Origin: Deltaproteobacteria bacterium
GTDB taxonomy: Bacteria; Myxococcota_A; UBA796; UBA9615
DNA length: 53,784 bases
NCBI GenBank assembly: GCA_002724675.1
Contig: PBPL01000213.1
Location: forward strand, 1 to 53,784
Reading direction: 5' to 3'
The notes under the pieces are model-generated. The model was not told the DNA's origin. It worked only from the letters and a program-made list of their open reading frames with translations, and ran no database searches. The position numbers and the translations under genes are program-made. The number at the start of each line of letters is the position of its first letter. Position 1 is the stretch's first letter. Below, piece after piece: positions 9,516 through 23,543 of this stretch.

Positions 9516-10934
9516 ATGAACCGACTCCCGTTCATCGCCTTAGTAGGGCTGTTGCTGACCCCCTCGGTAGCGTTCCCCCACGCTGGAGCACTGCCCCAAT
9601 CGCTGGATGTTCTCCGCTTTCCGGGAGACGAGGACGCGCTGTCGCTGGAGACAACCTTTGGAGTCGTGGTTTCCGCCGATAGCCAGCAGTGGAGATGGAT
9701 CTGCCACGAAACAATCATCCGAGACATGACAGCCGTCCTGCCGCGCTACACACAAAATCGGGACGGAGTGCTGTTGGCCTACACGAACCTACTGTCAGAG
9801 GCCCTCGCTGACCCCAGAGAGTCCGTCTATCGCTCAGAGGACGGCTGTGACTGGGTGGCCCCTCTCGGACTCACTGACGCCGTCGTAGCCGACGTGGCCT
9901 TCGACCCCGAAGACGGTAGCCTCGCAGTCGCAGCCCTCGCGAACTTGAAGCCTGAGAGCGACAACGGGCTCCGCTTCTCCAACGATGGGGGAGCGAGCTG
10001 GGCCCCCGCATTGGTCGATGACGACGACCGTATTTTTCGGAGTGTCCTCTTTGCTCCGGGGGGCAATGGCTTCGTGTGGGCGACTGCAGCGAGGTTCTCC
10101 GTGCTCCAGGCCTGGGTCGCCCGGAGCTCTGACTCCGGGCAGACATGGGAGTCGCAGCCCCTCGACTTCCCCGTCAACGAGTCCACCCAGGTTCTCATGG
10201 ACATTGCAGCAGCCTCAGCGGATGGAACTAGCGTCTGGGTTCGAGTGGACGCTCCCAACACCGACCACATACTCCGCAGCACAGACGGAGGCCTGAACTT
10301 CACAGAGGTCTTCTCTGTGGAGGACATCATCCACGACGCCGCACTCGACCCCTCGGGCACTCTGTGGATCATCACCGAAGAATCGGGACTCCATCGATCC
10401 GACGACGGGGTGACCTTCTCCCCGGTACCCGATGCACCGCGCGCCTTTGGCTTGGACGCCGACCAGCGCGGACTTCTGGTAGCGGCAAACATTTGGTACG
10501 AGGACTACTCCATGGCGGTGAGCGAGGACGGGTTGTCCTTCGAGCCACTCATGTCGCGGAACTACGCAGAGATCCAGGGCCCCGTGGAGTGCCCTGAGGA
10601 CAGCCTCTCCACCCAATTCTGCGATCCCGCCTGGCACATGCTGACCAACCAACTGGGACGGGGTGGTGATGACGACGACAGCGCTGGGGACGACGACACG
10701 GGAGACGACGATGACAACACCACCGATGAGCCGCCCGGCCCAGGGCCCGGCGACGATGACGACGACGGGACCGAAGAGGGCTGCCAGTGCGCAGCGAGCG
10801 CAGTGGCCCCGACGAAGCCATCAGCTAGGCTGCTTGGCTGTCTCACAGCTCTGTTCGTCATTGCGTGGCGACGCGACCGGGCCCTAGAATCTGCAATCCA
10901 TTGGACAACTGACACGGGAAGCAACAGCGCATGA
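9516..10934 (+). CDS. BNR/Asp-box repeat beta-propeller protein with poly-Asp linker and MYXO-CTERM-like tail
   Basis: The start was moved to ATG 9516 (MNRLPFIALVGLLLTPSVAFPHA signal peptide). Asp-box-like SxDxGxxW/F motifs are SEDGCDW, SNDGGASW, SSDSGQTW, STDGGLNF, RSDDGVTF and SEDGLSF. The tail is GGDDDDSAGDDDTGDDDD...GDDDDDGTEEGCQCAAS...LTALFVIAWRRDR. Confidence 0.8.
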   Translation: MNRLPFIALVGLLLTPSVAFPHAGALPQSLDVLRFPGDEDALSLETTFGVVVSADSQQWRWICHETIIRDMTAVLPRYTQNRDGVLLAYTNLLSEALADPRESVYRSEDGCDWVAPLGLTDAVVADVAFDPEDGSLAVAALANLKPESDNGLRFSNDGGASWAPALVDDDDRIFRSVLFAPGGNGFVWATAARFSVLQAWVARSSDSGQTWESQPLDFPVNESTQVLMDIAAASADGTSVWVRVDAPNTDHILRSTDGGLNFTEVFSVEDIIHDAALDPSGTLWIITEESGLHRSDDGVTFSPVPDAPRAFGLDADQRGLLVAANIWYEDYSMAVSEDGLSFEPLMSRNYAEIQGPVECPEDSLSTQFCDPAWHMLTNQLGRGGDDDDSAGDDDTGDDDDNTTDEPPGPGPGDDDDDGTEEGCQCAASAVAPTKPSARLLGCLTALFVIAWRRDRALESAIHWTTDTGSNSA

Positions 10935-11449: not shown

Positions 11450-12799
11450 TCATGGGCCGACACAGTCCCCCACATCGCCCTCCCAGACTAGAACCGTGCT
11501 TTCCAAGTCGAAGGTGGGGAAGTTGGCGCGAATGGACGGGTCGAGGTGACCCGACTCGATCAAGTCGTCGATGACTTCGAGGCCCATGGGGCGCAAGCGA
11601 ACCCGTGATGTGACCCGATCGGGGACCGCACCCAAGATGGGATAGCGAGCCTCCTGATAGTGGTAGTAAGCCGGGTCGGAAGGGTCGAGAGTGACCGAGG
11701 TGCCCAGGAGATTGCTCTCCACCGAGGCGATGTCCCAGAACATGTGCGCTTCCTCACCGTTCTCGTCGAAGCCCTTGTCTCGTAGCAGAAACAGGTACGG
11801 ATCTTCGATGCTCGTAATGGGCACCCCCTCCTCCACGTGGCCGCTCTGAAACAGCACCTCGTCACCACGCCAGGCCGTGACCTCAATCCAGCCCCGTCGG
11901 TCATGCGCAGCTCCACTGGGCCAGCTATGCCCGGCACCCACGTTGTCCAGCCGGACGACGACCTCCGAGCCCCCCGCAAACGGCGCCACACAGATCGTTG
12001 ACGCGAGCGTCGAGTCCAACTCCCGTTGTACATCCAGCCGTTGGTTGTCGGCATCGGGAAAGGGCGTCAATGCCACGTCGACCCCGGCCATACGGTGATC
12101 GTGAAGCCGGCGGATAGGAAGGCCTTCGAGATCAGCCGCCTGACCGTCGCGTCCGCGCGTGTGACAGTTCCCGCAGCTGAGCCGAAACACGGTGTCCTGG
12201 GCGAAGATGCTCTCCTTCCACTCGGCAAACGTGCGCTCCAGATGCACTCCGCGAGGCGTGACAATGTCATGGCAGGAGCCACACAAGGTCGACGACCGCA
12301 GATCGTTCCTGTCGTGGAGCGGTGAATACGCCAACTTGTGCGCCTCCGTAGGCACCGGGTCTGCCAGCCCGCCGAGGAGGATCCCATCCGTACCCAGTCG
12401 AATGGGCGCGTTGTGGTCCCCCTCCACCTCATTGGCAAGATGACAAAAAGCACAAGTGACGCCCTGCATCGGGGCATCTAGCTCATCGAGGTTGAGGCCG
12501 TCTTCCGTGACACCCTGCGCAACCGCCATAGGGGCGTGGCATTGCACACAGAAGTCACCGAGCTCACCGTCAGTCTCTTCCTGACCGCGCGCATTCATTG
12601 CTCGAAACACCGGATCTTCCGACGCGTATGCATGCATGCTGCCAGACCACTCTTGATAGTGATCTGGGTGGCAACTCTGACAGGCGTCGGGGTTGAGCAG
12701 TTGCTCGGCGGTCAAGAGCGTCTGCTGCTCACAACCAGCCAGGCCATGAGTCACCAGCACGCTACACACCAACCACAGAATTCTGCGCGTCATACACAT
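11450..12799 (-). CDS. Pentaheme c-type cytochrome lipoprotein
   Basis: Five CxxCH motifs are present: CQSCH, CVQCH, CAFCH, CGSCH and CGNCH. The start was moved to the internal ATG at 12799 or 12793, giving M(CM)TRRILWLVCSVLVTHGLAGC (signal peptide + lipobox). Confidence 0.85.
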   Translation of the reverse strand: MCMTRRILWLVCSVLVTHGLAGCEQQTLLTAEQLLNPDACQSCHPDHYQEWSGSMHAYASEDPVFRAMNARGQEETDGELGDFCVQCHAPMAVAQGVTEDGLNLDELDAPMQGVTCAFCHLANEVEGDHNAPIRLGTDGILLGGLADPVPTEAHKLAYSPLHDRNDLRSSTLCGSCHDIVTPRGVHLERTFAEWKESIFAQDTVFRLSCGNCHTRGRDGQAADLEGLPIRRLHDHRMAGVDVALTPFPDADNQRLDVQRELDSTLASTICVAPFAGGSEVVVRLDNVGAGHSWPSGAAHDRRGWIEVTAWRGDEVLFQSGHVEEGVPITSIEDPYLFLLRDKGFDENGEEAHMFWDIASVESNLLGTSVTLDPSDPAYYHYQEARYPILGAVPDRVTSRVRLRPMGLEVIDDLIESGHLDPSIRANFPTFDLESTVLVWEGDVGDCVGP

Positions 12800-12848
12800 G
12801 ATCTTAGCGTCAGTCCCACACCGTGACTCGACCACGAAGCAAAGAGCC

Positions 12849-13553
12849 ATGGCATCATCTTGTCTTATGCCGTGGCTCTGCTTGCTACTCCTGCTGTTCC
12901 TAACTGGCTGTTCTGCAGATGGCAACAGCCCTGGCGCGGCCCTCAACGATGACGACGGAGGAGCTGACGAAGGGGACAACACACCCGACTGTGCCTACCC
13001 CGAAGGGGCCACAGAACCCATGACACTGGGAGAGGTCCTGTACCCATACGCCTGGCCCAACGCCATTCACGGTGACGGAACGGAGGCAAGTCTGGACCTG
13101 GAGAACGCGGCCTGCGACACCGACGAGGTCCTAGACTGGAGCCCGTTTGATGTCTTGCTCTTCGTTTCATTGCCCGCCTGGTGACCGGCTTGCAGAACGC
13201 ACGCCGGGTCGGTTGCGAACTACGAAGACGCCATCATCGAGGCTGGGGCTCAGTTGATCTGGGTGCTGGAGTCGGGCTCCCTGGGCGGCGAGGGCACTGC
13301 AGAGTCCTGCCGGAGCACCCTGGACTTCCTCGGTAGCGAGAGCGGCTGGTGTGTGGGCGACAGTGAGACCCAGCCAGAACCTGGCACATTCGACGAGTCC
13401 CCATTCAGTGTGGGACGAGGATTCGACATCATCGTGACGCGGGACGACATGCGCATCGGCTACGCAACGAGCCACGGGACCCCCAATGGGAATGAAAATC
13501 TCGATGGCGAAGCCATTCTCGAGGCCGTCGAGACCATCATCAGCGGTAATTGA
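12849..13553 (+). CDS. Thioredoxin-fold (TlpA/ResA-like) lipoprotein, predicted selenoprotein with in-frame UGA at 13182-13184
   Basis: ORFs 12798-13184 and 13254-13553 are in the same frame, and I read no other stop between them. The join reads DVLLFVSLPAW-[TGA]-PACRTHAGSVANYEDAIIEAGAQLIWVLES, i.e. the redoxin WCxxC motif with TGA at the first Cys. The N-terminus MASSCLMPWLCLLLLLFLTGC is a signal peptide plus lipobox. Confidence 0.6.
13198..13217 (+). promoter_or_regulatory. Candidate bacterial SECIS-like hairpin downstream of the in-frame UGA
   Basis: CGCACG-CCGGGU-CG(GU)UGCG starts 16 nt after the UGA. It has a G/U-containing apical loop and bulged bases. An alternative hairpin CCGGC-U-UGC-AGAAC-GCA-C-GCCGG lies at 13185-13207. 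Both were folded by eye only. Confidence 0.3.
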
Positions 13554-13628
13554 ACCCTACTGCTAGCGACGCTGCGTCCTCAGGCATACAGCATTCGAGC
13601 TCTGACACGCTCTGCCAGTGGCAGTGCG

Positions 13629-14909
13629 TCAGCGGGGTGTGATCGTGGCTGAGGCCCAAACCGCCACCCCGTCGCCCGGGACACTGGCATACCAGTCGGC
13701 GATCGGAGTCGAGTTTGCGCAGCCAGCACCCAGGTAGAGCACTCCGCCGAACTGACCACCAATGGACGACAATGCGCGGATCTGAAAAGCAAGGGTGCCA
13801 GAGACCGTCGGCGTGAAGCTCTGCCAAGCGTGAGCGCTACTCATGCTTCCTGGGAGAAAGGGTGCCGTACTCACCGGGCTTGCCAAGCTGGTCGTCGACA
13901 CATCGACCACGCCATCCACATGGGTGACCAGGTCGAGGTCATAGGCTGAATTCCAATGCCCCATGGACTCCTTCATGTCCACTCCAGAAGCCACGTCGTA
14001 CATACCCGCAGCCCCACCCACATACCCCTGTATGTTCATGCCCGTGGAGAACGTGAGGCCGGTGTCCATGGTGTCGAACGACACGGTGTAGACCTCTGCC
14101 GTCGAGACCGTCACAGCGGGACATCCAGGGTCTGCCGTACAGTCGGGATCCGCGCAGTCCACCAAGAGATCCCCATCATCATCCACTCCATTGGAGCAGT
14201 CTTCATCGTCGGCACTGTCGTCGTCGTCGGCCGGGGTGTCCTCGTCACCCGAATCGTCATCATCCTGGGGGGGATCTTTGACCTCGTCATCTAGGGGGCC
14301 ATCCTTCCCGGTAGAACCTCCATCGGTAGGCACCTCTTCACTTGAGTCGTCGTCTCCTGTGTCCTCGTCGCCGGAGTCGTCGTCACCGACGTCCTGTTGC
14401 GCCGCAAGAACTCCGTAGTAGCTAAAGCTGGATGTCTGGAACTGGGCTACCCCCTCGGTCAGGGCGACGCCTGGCACGGTGATCCAGGTCGTGTCGTTGT
14501 CCGAGCCCAACGTCACCACGCCGATGCTCCCCAGGTCCACATCCAACTCCTCGGCCAGAGGCAAAGAAATCGTTACTGGCTGCGTAAACTGAGTGCCGTG
14601 TGGAGTGAAGGCATAGACACCACTCACCCATTGGAGTTCATCGGGTGCTGGCTGAGGAGGCGCGGCCTCTTGCACTTGGATGTCCACACTGGAATCCGTC
14701 AGAGCGCCTGGGGGAATCGAGACCCACGCACCATCGCCCGAGATGATGGTCGGCGAGCCGCTGGAGTTCTCAGTGCCGCACCCCGTACAAGCCATCCCAA
14801 CGATGAAGAGGACGAGCCCAACGACGGACCCATGGGTGCGGTCCAGTGAACGAAGCGGAACCGACTGGAGCCTGATGGCTATTTGGCTGAAGACGGATGG
14901 CGCTCCCAT
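13629..14909 (-). CDS. Lipoprotein with long Asp-rich linker and Cys/Asp calcium-type motif; function unknown
   Basis: The ORF is 426 aa, with N-terminus VVGLVLFIVGMACTGC (signal peptide/lipobox). An acidic linker GDDDSGDEDTGDDDSS...DDDDSGDEDTPADDDDSADDED is followed by CSNGVDDDGDLLVDCADPDCTADPGC. Confidence 0.65.
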   Translation of the reverse strand: MGAPSVFSQIAIRLQSVPLRSLDRTHGSVVGLVLFIVGMACTGCGTENSSGSPTIISGDGAWVSIPPGALTDSSVDIQVQEAAPPQPAPDELQWVSGVYAFTPHGTQFTQPVTISLPLAEELDVDLGSIGVVTLGSDNDTTWITVPGVALTEGVAQFQTSSFSYYGVLAAQQDVGDDDSGDEDTGDDDSSEEVPTDGGSTGKDGPLDDEVKDPPQDDDDSGDEDTPADDDDSADDEDCSNGVDDDGDLLVDCADPDCTADPGCPAVTVSTAEVYTVSFDTMDTGLTFSTGMNIQGYVGGAAGMYDVASGVDMKESMGHWNSAYDLDLVTHVDGVVDVSTTSLASPVSTAPFLPGSMSSAHAWQSFTPTVSGTLAFQIRALSSIGGQFGGVLYLGAGCANSTPIADWYASVPGDGVAVWASATITPR

Positions 14910-14964: not shown

Positions 14965-17900
14965 TCAGAGCTTCGTGGCCAGCTCGTCGAGACGCTGCGC
15001 CAACTCGGACTCTCCCGACACGCCCAGTGTCACGGCCAGCTGACGAGCCTCGTTGACTGCATCAGTCGCCACATCCTTCTGCTCTTGGCTGAGAGCAAAG
15101 ACTGCCTTTCTGCAGAGCAGCTTCGCCAACTCCAGCAGGTCTCCGACAGTCCGCAGCATCCCCTCACCGGCATCGAGATGCTCGCGCGCGAGGCGCACAT
15201 CTCCGAGCCGGGCAGCTACCGTTCCCAGCGAACCCAAGAAGGCCCCGATAGCGACCTGATACTCCAGTTCTCGAGCCAGGCCGACGGCCTCGGTGAGCCT
15301 CATCTGCGCTTCCGCCAACTCACCCTGCTCGATGGCGAGGTCTCCCAGATTGCCCAAGAGCACCGCCTGCTCTCGCACGTTCCCAAGCTCCCGCTGAAGC
15401 GTGAGGGCAAGCTCCATCAAGGTACGTGCATCCTCCAACCGCCCCTCCTCCCGATGGAAGAGGGCGAGATTGTTGATCACGATCCCCTCCGAACGGCGGT
15501 CCCCGATGGACCGAAAGATGGCCAGAGACCGCTCCATGGATGCTCGCGCAAAGCCGCGCTCGCCCAGGCTCAGCTCCAGCAGCCCCAGCTCACCCAGATG
15601 GACAGCCTCTGCCCGACGGTCTCCAACATCGCGATGAATCTCCAGCGCCTGACGATACATGGCCCTCGCTTCCTCCATTTCACCCCGCTTGCGTAGCATT
15701 CCAGCGAGGCCGCCCAAGCCGTTCCCCTCCAAGCGTCGATGCCCCACATCACGAAAAATCCCGATGGCCTCCTGATAGCGTCTTCGAGCCACGGGCCCAT
15801 CGCCACGAGCCTTGGAGCGCCCTGCCTGGTTCAATGAGACAATCCCCTCCCAGAGCGGATCTCCGGTCGCCTTACAGAGCTTCAGAGCCCTGGCCAGATC
15901 GGCATCAGCCCTCTCCAGATCACCCAGGCCAGCCCGGAGCGCAGCCCGGTCGATGAGCAAGCGGACCTTGCTGGAATCGGCAACGCCATCCAGGGCCAAG
16001 ACGCGTGTCGCCAAACGAAGACCAGCATCGAACGGTCCAGCCATCCGAATTTCCTGGAGGATTGCACGGGCCGCCGACTCGGCGGTCCCCGAGTCTCCCC
16101 GCCCCACGGCGCGCTCGGCAGCAACCAATAAGTTGTCCAACTCGAGACGGAGGCTGTGGCGACGCTCCGTCCCACCCACCTCGTCCAAGCGGTCGAGAAA
16201 CGACGGCGCGCCGAGGGCAGCGTAGTAGACCCCATGACGCTGTTCGATGTCCGAGGGGCGGACCATCACCGCGAGACCGTCCTGGGTCTCTTCCGGGTCC
16301 TCCACACCGCGGAGTTGATCCGATGCGAACGACTGGATGGACAACAAGAGTCGGTACCGAGGCTCACCAGAGTGACGATCCGGCGCTTGGACATGCAAGA
16401 GGCTGTGATCCACTAGATGCTGCAGCGCATCCATCGCCCAGGGGGCGTCGGGCCACGGGCTGAGGTCAAGGACCTGCTCAGCAGCCTCTAGACCGAAGCC
16501 CCCTTCAAAGACGGAGCACTGAGCCAACGAGGCCTGTTCCCACGGATTGAGCAGGTCCCAAGACCAGCGAATCGCTCCCAAGAGCGTCGCCTGCTGGGGC
16601 TTCACCCCCCGACTCGATGACTGGAGGAGTTGGAATCGCGATGAAAGCCGCTCACGAATCGTCTTAGGCGGAATCAGGCGAACTCGCGCTGCGGCGAGCT
16701 CGATGGCCAGGGGCAAGCCATCCAATTCCTCCACAATGGCCCGGACATCCGCCGCATTCTTCCTCTCGAGGGCAAAGTCCGGACAAACCGACTGCGCCCG
16801 ATCCACAAAGAGCTGTATGGCCGGGTTGGCGGCCAATGTCTTGAGAGGAACCTTCTGCTGCGCGACGACAGGGAGGGGGGCTAGCGGGAGGAGTTGTTCG
16901 CCTTCCAGCTGGAGCTTCGACCGACTGGTCAACAGAAGCCGGGCTTGGGTGGCTGTCCGACTCCACTGGGCAACTGCAAGGGCAGACTCACTGTCGAGTT
17001 GCTCAAAGTTGTCCAGGATCAACAACACCTTGCCCCGACCCTGAAGAGCGTCTCCCAGGCGAGCAACAGGGTCCCGAGACGTCAGCGGCACCTGAAGGAC
17101 AGCGCCCACCACCGCGCAGAGGCCTGCCAAGTCACGAGCCAGGGTGAGGTCGCAAAACCAGACACCTCCGGGGAACTGCTCAACCGCCTCGACCCCAAAT
17201 CGCTGGGCCAACCGAGTCTTGCCAGCACCGGCAGCGCCCACCAGCGTCACCACCCGCGACCGCCCGTGGAAGAGACCAGCCAGCCTGTCTAGTTCTTCCT
17301 CTCGACCCACAAAGGTGGTGAGTCGCGCCTGAATGTTGGTGGTTTGAAGCACGCGAAAAGCAACGGTCACGGAGCCGCTCATGGCTCCGGGGTCGTTGGC
17401 ATCGTCCGCCGCTCCACCGCCGAGCCCCCAAGGCCCGCTGGGTGCCACCGTGTCGGCGGTGATGCTCCCATAGGGCACCTGCGGCCTAGAAGCGGCGTAG
17501 TTGGATGCCGTCACTCCCTCGTCGCGAGCCCACTTGAGCGCCTTTAGGACCTCATCACAGGAGGGGATCCGATCGGCTCGATGCTCCCGCACCATGGACT
17601 CGACGACTTCCACCAGGGCAGCAGGGACCCCCTTTTTCAAGAGACCATCCACATCACGCAAGGACAGTCGCCACTCCTTCACCCCGATGGGGCGCGAGCC
17701 ATATCCCGACAGCAGCTCCCAAAAAGTGACGCCCATCGAATAGATGTCCGCGCGAGCATCCAAGTCATCCATGGAGTTCAGCTGCTCGGGCGCCATGTAC
17801 ACGGGCGTGCCCACAGTGACTCCAGTGGTCGTAAGGCGATCGGAATCAATGAGACTAGCGATCCCGAAGTCGAGTACTTTCACCTGGTTGTTGGCCGTCA

Positions 17901-18324
17901 CCATGATGTTGCCGGGCTTGAGGTCCCGGTGCAGACAACCCTCCGCATGGGCATGGGACACCGCTTCGAGCACCTGCGTCATTAGTTGAACCGCCATCAG
18001 AGGCGCCATGGGCGCATCCACATGCTCGGCCATCACCTGGCGCAGTGTTCGACCGTGGACCAACTCCGTGACGATGGCGCACCGATCCCTAAGATCCACA
18101 AAGTCGTAGAGTTGGACGATGTTGTCGTGGTGGAGTCGAGAGAGCGCCTCGGCCTCGACCCGAAGGCGACGACGCAAGCTCGCATCGGAGGCGAGGTGCG
18201 GGTGGAGCATCTTGACGGCCGCCACTACACCGTCTTCTGCTGTGTTCTCCGCTCGGTACACGGTGGCCATGCCACCGCCTCCCAATACTCCCGTCAGCTT
18301 GTATTGACCAACGTACTCGCCCAT
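14965..18324 (-). CDS. STAND-type Ser/Thr protein kinase (kinase + P-loop NTPase + TPR repeats)
   Basis: The N-terminal Hanks kinase has GGGGMATVYRA...AVK, HRDLKPGNIMV, DFGIAS and GTPVYMAPE. The P-loop region is FVGREEELDRL...VTLVGAAGAGKTRLA, with LLILDNFE as Walker B-like. The C-terminal ~350 aa are TPR-like repeats (RGEMEEARAMYRQALEIHRDVGDRRAEA and similar). Confidence 0.9.
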   Translation of the reverse strand: MGEYVGQYKLTGVLGGGGMATVYRAENTAEDGVVAAVKMLHPHLASDASLRRRLRVEAEALSRLHHDNIVQLYDFVDLRDRCAIVTELVHGRTLRQVMAEHVDAPMAPLMAVQLMTQVLEAVSHAHAEGCLHRDLKPGNIMVTANNQVKVLDFGIASLIDSDRLTTTGVTVGTPVYMAPEQLNSMDDLDARADIYSMGVTFWELLSGYGSRPIGVKEWRLSLRDVDGLLKKGVPAALVEVVESMVREHRADRIPSCDEVLKALKWARDEGVTASNYAASRPQVPYGSITADTVAPSGPWGLGGGAADDANDPGAMSGSVTVAFRVLQTTNIQARLTTFVGREEELDRLAGLFHGRSRVVTLVGAAGAGKTRLAQRFGVEAVEQFPGGVWFCDLTLARDLAGLCAVVGAVLQVPLTSRDPVARLGDALQGRGKVLLILDNFEQLDSESALAVAQWSRTATQARLLLTSRSKLQLEGEQLLPLAPLPVVAQQKVPLKTLAANPAIQLFVDRAQSVCPDFALERKNAADVRAIVEELDGLPLAIELAAARVRLIPPKTIRERLSSRFQLLQSSSRGVKPQQATLLGAIRWSWDLLNPWEQASLAQCSVFEGGFGLEAAEQVLDLSPWPDAPWAMDALQHLVDHSLLHVQAPDRHSGEPRYRLLLSIQSFASDQLRGVEDPEETQDGLAVMVRPSDIEQRHGVYYAALGAPSFLDRLDEVGGTERRHSLRLELDNLLVAAERAVGRGDSGTAESAARAILQEIRMAGPFDAGLRLATRVLALDGVADSSKVRLLIDRAALRAGLGDLERADADLARALKLCKATGDPLWEGIVSLNQAGRSKARGDGPVARRRYQEAIGIFRDVGHRRLEGNGLGGLAGMLRKRGEMEEARAMYRQALEIHRDVGDRRAEAVHLGELGLLELSLGERGFARASMERSLAIFRSIGDRRSEGIVINNLALFHREEGRLEDARTLMELALTLQRELGNVREQAVLLGNLGDLAIEQGELAEAQMRLTEAVGLARELEYQVAIGAFLGSLGTVAARLGDVRLAREHLDAGEGMLRTVGDLLELAKLLCRKAVFALSQEQKDVATDAVNEARQLAVTLGVSGESELAQRLDELATKL

Positions 18325-23297: not shown

Positions 23298-23478
23298 ACA
23301 GGACATCGACGGAAGTGGTGCTCGCGCGAGTGCGCGAGCAAGGGAAGCCGGTGAGAGACCGGCGCGGCCCCCGCCACTGTGACCGGGGACGGCCCTGCAC
23401 AAAGCCACCGGAGCTGACCGGGAAGGCGCAGGCAGCCGAGTGATCCGGAAGCCAGGAGACCGACCTCTCCCGTCCAGA
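23298..23478 (+). promoter_or_regulatory. Cobalamin (B12) riboswitch
   Basis: Conserved core elements include GGTG followed by the hairpin CTCGCGC-GAGT-GCGCGAG. The core also holds AAGGGAAGCCGGTGAGAGACCGGCGCGGCCCCCGCCACTGTGACCGGGGA and GCCACCGG..CCGGGAAGGCG. The B12 box AAGCCAGGAGACCGACC is at 23449-23465. It lies directly upstream of a TonB-dependent receptor gene. Confidence 0.85.
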
Positions 23479-23543
23479 ACTACGAGCCCCGGGGTGGTGG
23501 GATCGTGTCGCGACCCGGGCTGCAGCTCCCGTCTCGAACCGGA

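Follow-up and report, generated by a model that had tools for sequence, protein, structure and literature searches.

The window analysed here is a 53,784-nucleotide stretch of DNA (contig PBPL01000213.1, positions 1 to 53,784 of the forward strand) from the Deltaproteobacteria bacterium assembly GCA_002724675.1, which GTDB places in Myxococcota_A (UBA796; UBA9615). On its plus strand, the list of open reading frames (ORFs) halves one gene into 12798-13184 and 13254-13553, both in one frame. The initial annotation, made from the letters of the window, had proposed that this is an unannotated selenoprotein carrying selenocysteine (Sec) at the first cysteine position of a thioredoxin-fold motif. 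Translation of 12798-13556 confirmed the underlying reading: a single reading frame, 12849-13553, is broken solely by the TGA at 13182-13184, and the peptide across the junction is DVLLFVSLPAW*PACRTHAGSVANYEDAIIEAGAQLIWVLES, which starts PACRTHAGSV after the stop. As set out below, this is very probably a genuine, unannotated selenoprotein gene, with the UGA specifying Sec in an exported thioredoxin-fold redox lipoprotein.

Layout of the gene and its predicted product

The features of the locus are collected in Table 1. Because a Shine-Dalgarno-like AAAGAG lies immediately 5' of the ATG at 12849 and none lies 5' of the ATG at 12798, the former appears to be the better start and the latter the less likely alternative. 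The leader from ATG 12849, MASSCLMPWLCLLLLLFLTGC, contains the lipobox L-T-G-C, in agreement with the earlier prediction of a lipoprotein. A crude search found a lipobox in 33 of the 59 homologous gene copies described below, and the distant Cys-form relatives were positive too. Two cysteines of the conserved N-terminal region, Cys48 (12990-2) and Cys89 (13113-5), are invariant in alignments A4 and A6, and the further pair Cys154 and Cys168 probably forms a structural disulfide. The real terminator of the gene is also a TGA, as in 31 of 47 homologues, and no SECIS-type hairpin (selenocysteine insertion sequence, SECIS) follows it; one mRNA would thus read the same codon in two ways. A scan for promoters and terminators found nothing. 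Two further records match the window, a Tara Oceans scaffold and a contig from the metagenome-assembled genome (MAG) GCA_003533695.1, and both have the gene called as two fragments.

Table 1. Features of the selenoprotein gene and its surroundings in the window, with related database proteins
Feature	Coordinates	Strand	Basis or remark
Pentahaem cytochrome c554-like lipoprotein gene, divergent from the selenoprotein gene	11450-12793	-	five CxxCH motifs
Complete selenoprotein coding sequence (CDS), 234 residues including Sec112	12849..13553	+	one frame, one internal TGA; homologues at 57 related loci
Lipoprotein signal peptide, lipobox L-T-G-C, lipidated Cys21 at 12909-12911 (predicted)	12849..12911	+	sequence reading
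Conserved N-terminal region, C-x-Y-P-x-G-x-x-E-P-M ... Y-x-W ... C ... D-W-S	12990..13148	+	alignments
Beta-strand 1, D-V-L-L-F-V-S, running into the active site	13149..13169	+	AlphaFold2 (AF2) model of P0001 and alignments
In-frame UGA read as Sec112 (predicted)	13182..13184	+	TGA in 58 of 59 homologous copies, TGC in 1
U-P-A-C redox motif following a Trp, at the start of helix 1	13182..13193	+	aligns with WCPDC (P0001) and WCPxC (distant relatives)
Resolving Cys115 (predicted role)	13191-13193	+	second residue of the pair in the U-P-A-C motif
Bacterial SECIS (bSECIS)-like hairpin CGCA(C)GCCG-GGU-CGGUUGCG, 8 bp, bulged C at 13202	13198..13217	+	folding and conservation
Sec-clade-specific cysteine pair, Cys154 (13308-10) and Cys168 (13350-2)	13308..13352	+	invariant in alignment A4, absent from the Cys-form clade
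R-G-F-D-I-I-V, then beta-strand 3	13416..13436	+	alignment A6; strand 204-210 in the AF2 model of P0001
True stop TGA	13551-13553	+	sequence reading
Gene for a 426-aa protein with an Asp/Glu-rich middle, convergent with the selenoprotein gene	13629-14909	-	no Pfam match
Large Ser/Thr kinase-AAA-TPR gene	14965-18324	-
Cobalamin riboswitch aptamer	23299-23482	+	score of 101 bits, well over the Rfam gathering cutoff
Deeper Cys-form clade, examples P0179, P0188, P0194, P0200, P0205, P0262			database proteins

The in-frame TGA is conserved and pairs with cysteine

A first protein search returned one full-length orthologue, P0001, from a Myxococcota MAG, with the motif W-C-P-D-C, together with two gene calls that terminate exactly at ...PAW or ...PAF and whose DNA reads TGA and then conserved in-frame sequence. 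At the codon matching the window's UGA, P0001 (locus L004) carries TGC. Scans of genome and metagenome collections contributed 54 further loci, bringing the homologue set to 59 gene copies, made up of the window and 57 loci and nearly all from Myxococcota. By record title, most loci belong to that phylum (Polyangia, Sandaracinaceae, Nannocystaceae, among them ST9 [JBLWFJ01], and Plesiocystis pacifica SIR-1). Myxobacteria from both marine and soil settings carry the family. The codon at the Sec column is TGA in 58 of the 59 copies and TGC in 1, and neither TAA nor TAG occurs there. Orthologues that ended or shifted frame at this position would have pointed to a pseudogene, but the frame remains open for 119-133 codons beyond the UGA in every copy, even though the homologous proteins share just ~50-60% identity. 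Nucleotide diversity by codon position 3' of the UGA is 0.30/0.22/0.47, a coding pattern that matches the 5' part of the gene. TGA is the stop of 15 of the 23 confident genes in the window; as an ordinary terminator there, it has not been reassigned.

A lone in-frame stop in one metagenomic contig would fit a pseudogene, or a TGA produced by sequencing or assembly error, but the identical TGA is present in all three assemblies of this locus, none of which shows the TGC or TGT that an error would imply, and it recurs in 57 further copies of the gene across separate genomes and metagenomes. With the downstream frame intact and under purifying selection, both possibilities are effectively refuted. 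Taken together, the 58:1 ratio of TGA to TGC, the open frame, the coding-type diversity, and the lack of reassignment exclude a pseudogene, a sequencing error, and an arrangement of two genes.

The last of these belongs to a wider proposal, in which the UGA is a genuine terminator and the locus holds either two genes or one that gives two products, the N-terminal one truncated and the C-terminal one with its own initiation. Every gene caller does split the gene, and an in-frame TTG is present at 13254. However, the 23 codons from the UGA to that first possible start are strongly conserved as protein (P-x-C-x-x-H-A-G-S-V) with coding-type substitutions, the split would part strand 1 of the thioredoxin fold from helix 1 and lose half of the CxxC motif, no break occurs in the TGC orthologue or in the distant relatives, and the other two stop codons are never found at this position. 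Termination at the UGA is therefore highly improbable.

The alignment of Sec- and Cys-containing homologues at the UGA codon, which the initial annotation had named as a check, gave the expected pairing. The UGA column holds Cys in P0001 and in ~30 distant full-length relatives, where it is the nucleophilic residue of CxxC.

Several genomes carry more than one copy of the gene. P. pacifica SIR-1 (L013) has two in tandem, with UGA at 10310 and 11195; the 9.4-Mb MAG OZ245034.1 has three dispersed copies (L009, L017, and L019), all with TGA; and the MAG JADJBV01 has two (L018 and L030), both with TGA. Ten carrier contigs (L015, L022, L025, L027, L029, L031, L032, L020, L026, and L034) are titled as Rickettsiales, Enterobacteriaceae, Alphaproteobacteria, or Rhodobacterales MAGs. 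Two of the oddly titled isolate names contain "MYXO," and so these labels look like probable taxonomic or binning errors. A search of the window for other TGA-split genes found none that was convincing.

A SECIS-type hairpin follows the UGA

Two hairpins directly downstream of the UGA, at 13185-13207 and 13198-13217, had been put forward as possible SECIS elements. They overlap, and only the second stood up: the first pairs perfectly in just 7 of 51 distinct homologues, whereas the second is conserved and resembles known bacterial elements. The published bSECIS model specifies a small apical loop of G followed by G or U, a spacing of 16-37 nt, and a minimum free energy (MFE) of <= -7.5 (PMC13188914). 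The hairpin at 13198-13217 agrees with all four criteria of PMC13188914. Its 3-nt apical loop, GGU (13207-13209), lies 22 nt past the UGA; its upper stem has at least 4 bp; and its MFE in a per-sequence fold is -8.6 kcal/mol. Counted from the U of the UGA, it occupies columns 17-36.

The hairpin is maintained through biased synonymous codon choice and covariation. A hairpin of at least 7 bp occurs at this fixed place in 84% of 50 distinct sequences, against 19% of synonymous resamplings (highest replicate, 32%), and with the structure fixed, pairing extends to 75.6% of cells, compared with 22-57% in controls whose 3' side was slid. For covariation, the score was 0.172 versus 0.105 +/- 0.010, a level reached by 0 of 500 shuffles; since the sequences are related rather than independent, such shuffle statistics overstate the significance. 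The outermost pair, 17-36, appears as CG 15 times, GC 13 times, AU 6 times, and UA once (0 of 20000 permutations reached this level), and it couples a nonsynonymous position with the third, synonymous position of a codon for Ala or Val. Codon usage here is biased: the loop Gly codon is GGT in 23 of 30 cases versus 12% family-wide, and the Ser codon of the hairpin is TCG in 38 of 43 versus 34% family-wide.

Like the E. coli fdhF-type SECIS and the bSECISearch consensus, this is a stem-loop within the CDS, directly past the UGA, with a small G(G/U) apical loop. It differs from these in that its sequence is family specific and matches no Rfam model and that homologues use two to three registers; its binding by SelB is a prediction. 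A covariance model (R1), run over 672 kb, recovered the family's own sites alone and no other selenoprotein genes. In the Cys-form orthologue, a weakened hairpin with the family's lowest model score (39 bits) is retained at L004 4687-4734, which is compatible with a recent conversion of Sec to Cys.

The predicted product has a thioredoxin fold

An AF2 model of P0001, built from an alignment of database fragments, had a predicted local distance difference test (pLDDT) score of >90 over residues ~101-247 and low confidence over the N-terminal 100 residues. The modelled order is b1-[C121]-a1-b2-a2-b3-b4-a3, with a strand at 111-118 just before Cys121 and a helix at 122-133 right after it. In a Foldseek search of the PDB, peroxiredoxins (Prx), ResA (template modelling [TM] score, 0.67-0.68), AhpC, BCP, and GPX4 were matched at a probability of 1.0. 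Given the confident model and these matches, the thioredoxin-fold reading holds, with a predicted peroxiredoxin/ResA-like fold in which Sec, at the N-terminal end of helix 1, takes the canonical place of the nucleophile. The family profile gave weak matches to PDB sequences (E values of 0.06-0.5), namely the Prx5-type Asp f3 and a nucleoredoxin-like protein, which cover strand 1, the CxxC, helix 1, and strand 2.

Two features bear on the chemistry. In the hidden Markov model alignment, Sec falls at the Prx Thr position and the second Cys at the peroxidatic-Cys position. Additionally, alignment A6 shows R-G-F-D-I-I-V in the Sec clade in place of the cis-Pro loop F-P-T-x-F-V-V of the Cys clade, which puts a conserved Arg near strand 3 according to the alignment. 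Peroxiredoxins carry an R-G-x-F-I-I-D motif at this place. The exchange of cis-Pro for Arg-Gly suggests, but does not show, a shift to peroxidase-like chemistry. On this basis, we lean toward a peroxidase-like or hybrid activity rather than that of a classical cytochrome-maturation reductase, and this is the weakest step in the argument.

Evidence against Sec decoding and the readthrough alternative

A number of results weigh against a selenoprotein. Neither the window nor 45 loci yielded a tRNA-Sec in ARAGORN, and tblastn searches probed with E. coli SelD and SelA gave no match to selD or selA in 731 kb of DNA, flanks included; the small share of each genome that was sampled makes the missing selD and selA matches expected. 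Cys forms are nearly absent from the close clade, an unusual pattern among selenoprotein families of bacteria. The window protein scored 14.3-14.7 bits against the Pfam Redoxin and AhpC-TSA models (PF00578 and PF08534), below their cutoffs of 26-26.6; the subthreshold match falls on the active-site segment, P0001 reached 19-20 bits, and the distant P0179 alone passed, at 26.7 bits. The relatedness of the sequences, as noted above, tempers the hairpin statistics. The folding energy of the post-UGA segment was no lower than that of synonymous resamplings of the same peptide (mean z, -0.25), and the 85-nt segment of the window was no more stable than shuffles (z = +0.77). Because the coding sequence is GC rich and its energy is no better than that of controls, energy was not counted as SECIS evidence, and the positional-hairpin test and covariation were used instead. 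RNAalifold gave no consensus structure on the ungapped codon alignment, a failure explained by the use of two to three registers (with a bulged A, with a bulged C, or unbulged) among the homologues. No relevant Rfam family matched at gathering or permissive thresholds, apart from a chance subthreshold match to a small RNA. Finally, a comparison of 47 loci turned up no conserved neighbour and no operon partner, leaving no pointer to a substrate or a reductant; its large clusters consist of the gene's own halves and antisense artefacts.

The failure to find Sec machinery in the window, in 45 loci, or in 731 kb of DNA would also fit readthrough of the UGA without Sec, in which a near-cognate or suppressor tRNA inserts Trp, Cys, Arg, or Gly and the hairpin merely slows termination. 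UGA followed by C is the leakiest stop context, and C follows the UGA in 39 of 51 distinct homologues. Against this, the TGC orthologue and every deeper relative have the nucleophilic Cys of CxxC at the UGA column, and a functional redox centre at this position would need Sec or Cys. The hairpin, moreover, has a SelB-type position and a G(G/U) apical loop, and at least one cultured host, P. pacifica, is a documented Sec user. Readthrough of this kind is therefore very unlikely.

The host evidence comes from published surveys. P. pacifica SIR-1 appears among the Sec-utilizing organisms, with 6 selenoprotein genes given as a total only, alongside Haliangium and several Myxococcus species (Peng et al. 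2016; PMC5029168 Table S2). A planctomycete operon containing fdhA, itself a selenoprotein gene, is reported to be well conserved in P. pacifica (PMC4807772). It is this published Sec user that carries two copies of the present family.

We consider Sec insertion at the UGA very probable in light of the conserved in-frame codon, the Cys/Sec pairing, the downstream coding constraint, the SECIS-type hairpin, the fold, and the lipobox. With these, the earlier proposal of an unannotated UxxC thioredoxin-fold selenoprotein is supported.

Database entries and the distant Cys-form clade

A profile search of 5.8 billion proteins returned 251 family members. Among the best 120 of these, P0001 is the sole full-length member and the rest are C-terminal fragments of 104-129 aa that are unnamed or called "hypothetical protein," one of them from Enhygromyxa salina. 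An exhaustive phmmer search of 1.84 billion representatives gave a matching picture, in which close relatives stop at query residue 120 or begin near residue 131. Running through the site are ~30 distant relatives of 250-770 aa with 25-34% identity. Like the Sec clade, these lipoproteins have the C-x-Y-P motif in their N-terminal part, together with W-C-P-x-C-P, and they score at or close to the Pfam AhpC-TSA threshold. Many of these Cys-form members carry Big_2 domains at the N-terminus and are extended at the C-terminus by an "EEASEPND...GDLD" segment. One member of this clade, P0262, has two redoxin modules in one protein.

Neighbouring genes

The initial annotation had described a pentahaem cytochrome c gene divergent from the selenoprotein gene, and its five CxxCH motifs were verified. 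It had also suggested a periplasmic thiol-redox role, possibly in cytochrome maturation or protection. A multihaem cytochrome adjoins the gene in 1 of 47 loci, that of the window; with the adjacency not conserved, the proposed role has no comparative support, and we rejected the link.

The Ser/Thr kinase-AAA-TPR gene of the window recurs within a few kilobases in 6 loci (L004 and five others), and in L004 (1-1996) it adjoins the Cys-form orthologue. This recurrence may reflect synteny among close relatives or a regulatory link.

Discussion

Searches for selenoproteins turn up UxxC proteins with a thioredoxin fold more often than any other kind. The kind of finding made here is thus an expected one, and the question is how the family relates to those already described. 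The 2026 inventory comprises 119 selenoprotein families and includes a Prx-like thiol:disulfide oxidoreductase (PF00578), a Redoxin family protein (PF08534), and DsbA-like and DsbG-like proteins (PMC13188914 Table 1). The Sargasso and Global Ocean Sampling (GOS) surveys described "Prx-like" selenoprotein families with UxxC and weak Pfam similarity. Two of these, GOS Prx-like 1 and Prx-like 3 (the latter equal to the Redoxin family protein, PF08534), share with the window family a thioredoxin/Prx-like scaffold in which Sec is the first residue of UxxC at the start of helix 1. The GOS Prx-like families also share its weak AhpC-TSA/Redoxin similarity and marine occurrence, and in Prx-like 3 members a leader of lipoprotein type and an upstream Cys accompany W-U-x-x-C. 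However, when aligned by hhalign, a Prx-like 3 sequence reached a probability of only 75% (64 columns) and a Prx-like 1 sequence one of 85%, and none of the window family's signature peptides occurred in the part of the GOS sequence sets that was searched. The window family differs from these families in being restricted to Myxococcota, in its Sec:Cys ratio of 58:1, and in having R-G instead of the cis-Pro loop. We therefore rejected identity with GOS Prx-like 3 or Prx-like 1: as far as the alignments and the searched part of the GOS sets go, the superfamily is shared and the family is not.

Two other groups invite comparison. The TlpA/ResA/CcmG redoxins are likewise membrane-anchored or lipoprotein thioredoxin-fold proteins with W-C-x-x-C, and ResA had the best target-length-normalised TM score among the listed matches. 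They differ in having a Cys nucleophile and a cis-Pro P-T loop where the Sec clade has Sec and R-G-F, and the window family shows no conserved association with cytochrome-maturation genes or cytochromes in 47 loci. Peroxiredoxins (AhpC/TSA, BCP, and Prx5) and glutathione peroxidases were the top structural matches, with weak profile matches to Asp f3 and AhpC-TSA, and the Arg-Gly before strand 3 resembles the Prx motif. The motif of the window protein is UxxC rather than PxxxTxxC or TxxU.

Pfam gave no match at threshold, and no NCBIfam model matched at E values up to 1. Together with a similarity to the GOS families that stays at the superfamily level, this led us to file the family, judging from its sequences, as a new one of the well-known UxxC thioredoxin-fold type; earlier lumping under a generic name, such as cd02966, is possible.

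From the evidence above we infer Sec insertion itself, an extracytoplasmic location, and the following chemistry. SelB carrying Sec-tRNA(Sec) would bind the hairpin at its GGU loop and deliver Sec to the UGA in competition with release factor 2, and translation would run on to the genuine stop at 13551. Anchored through Cys21, the mature protein would lie outside the cytoplasmic membrane. There, the selenolate of W-U-P-A-C could attack an oxidised substrate, either a disulfide or a peroxide; Cys115 would resolve the intermediate through a selenenylsulfide, and a reductant would recycle it.

A more specific proposal, which we put forward tentatively and regard as doubtful, is that the family is an uncatalogued, Myxococcota-restricted, near-obligate-Sec (58:1) extracytoplasmic lipoprotein selenoperoxidase that arose from a TlpA-like CxxC redoxin through exchange of Cys for Sec and of cis-Pro for Arg-Gly.

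For the databases, the finding means that at least 250 entries, including those from the cultured P. pacifica and E. salina, are halves of one selenoprotein, and joining the fragments corrects this systematic annotation error. For the bacterial selenoproteome, it adds a family-level member in Myxococcota, a phylum that the 2026 review never mentions (PMC13188914). The near-total preference for Sec, together with the swap of cis-Pro for Arg, offers a natural contrast for asking what Sec does beyond Cys. If the selenoperoxidase proposal is true, these largely aerobic, predatory bacteria would possess a periplasmic or cell-surface selenoperoxidase, and the expansion of paralogues, up to three copies per genome, would suggest an unrecognised myxobacterial requirement for selenium.

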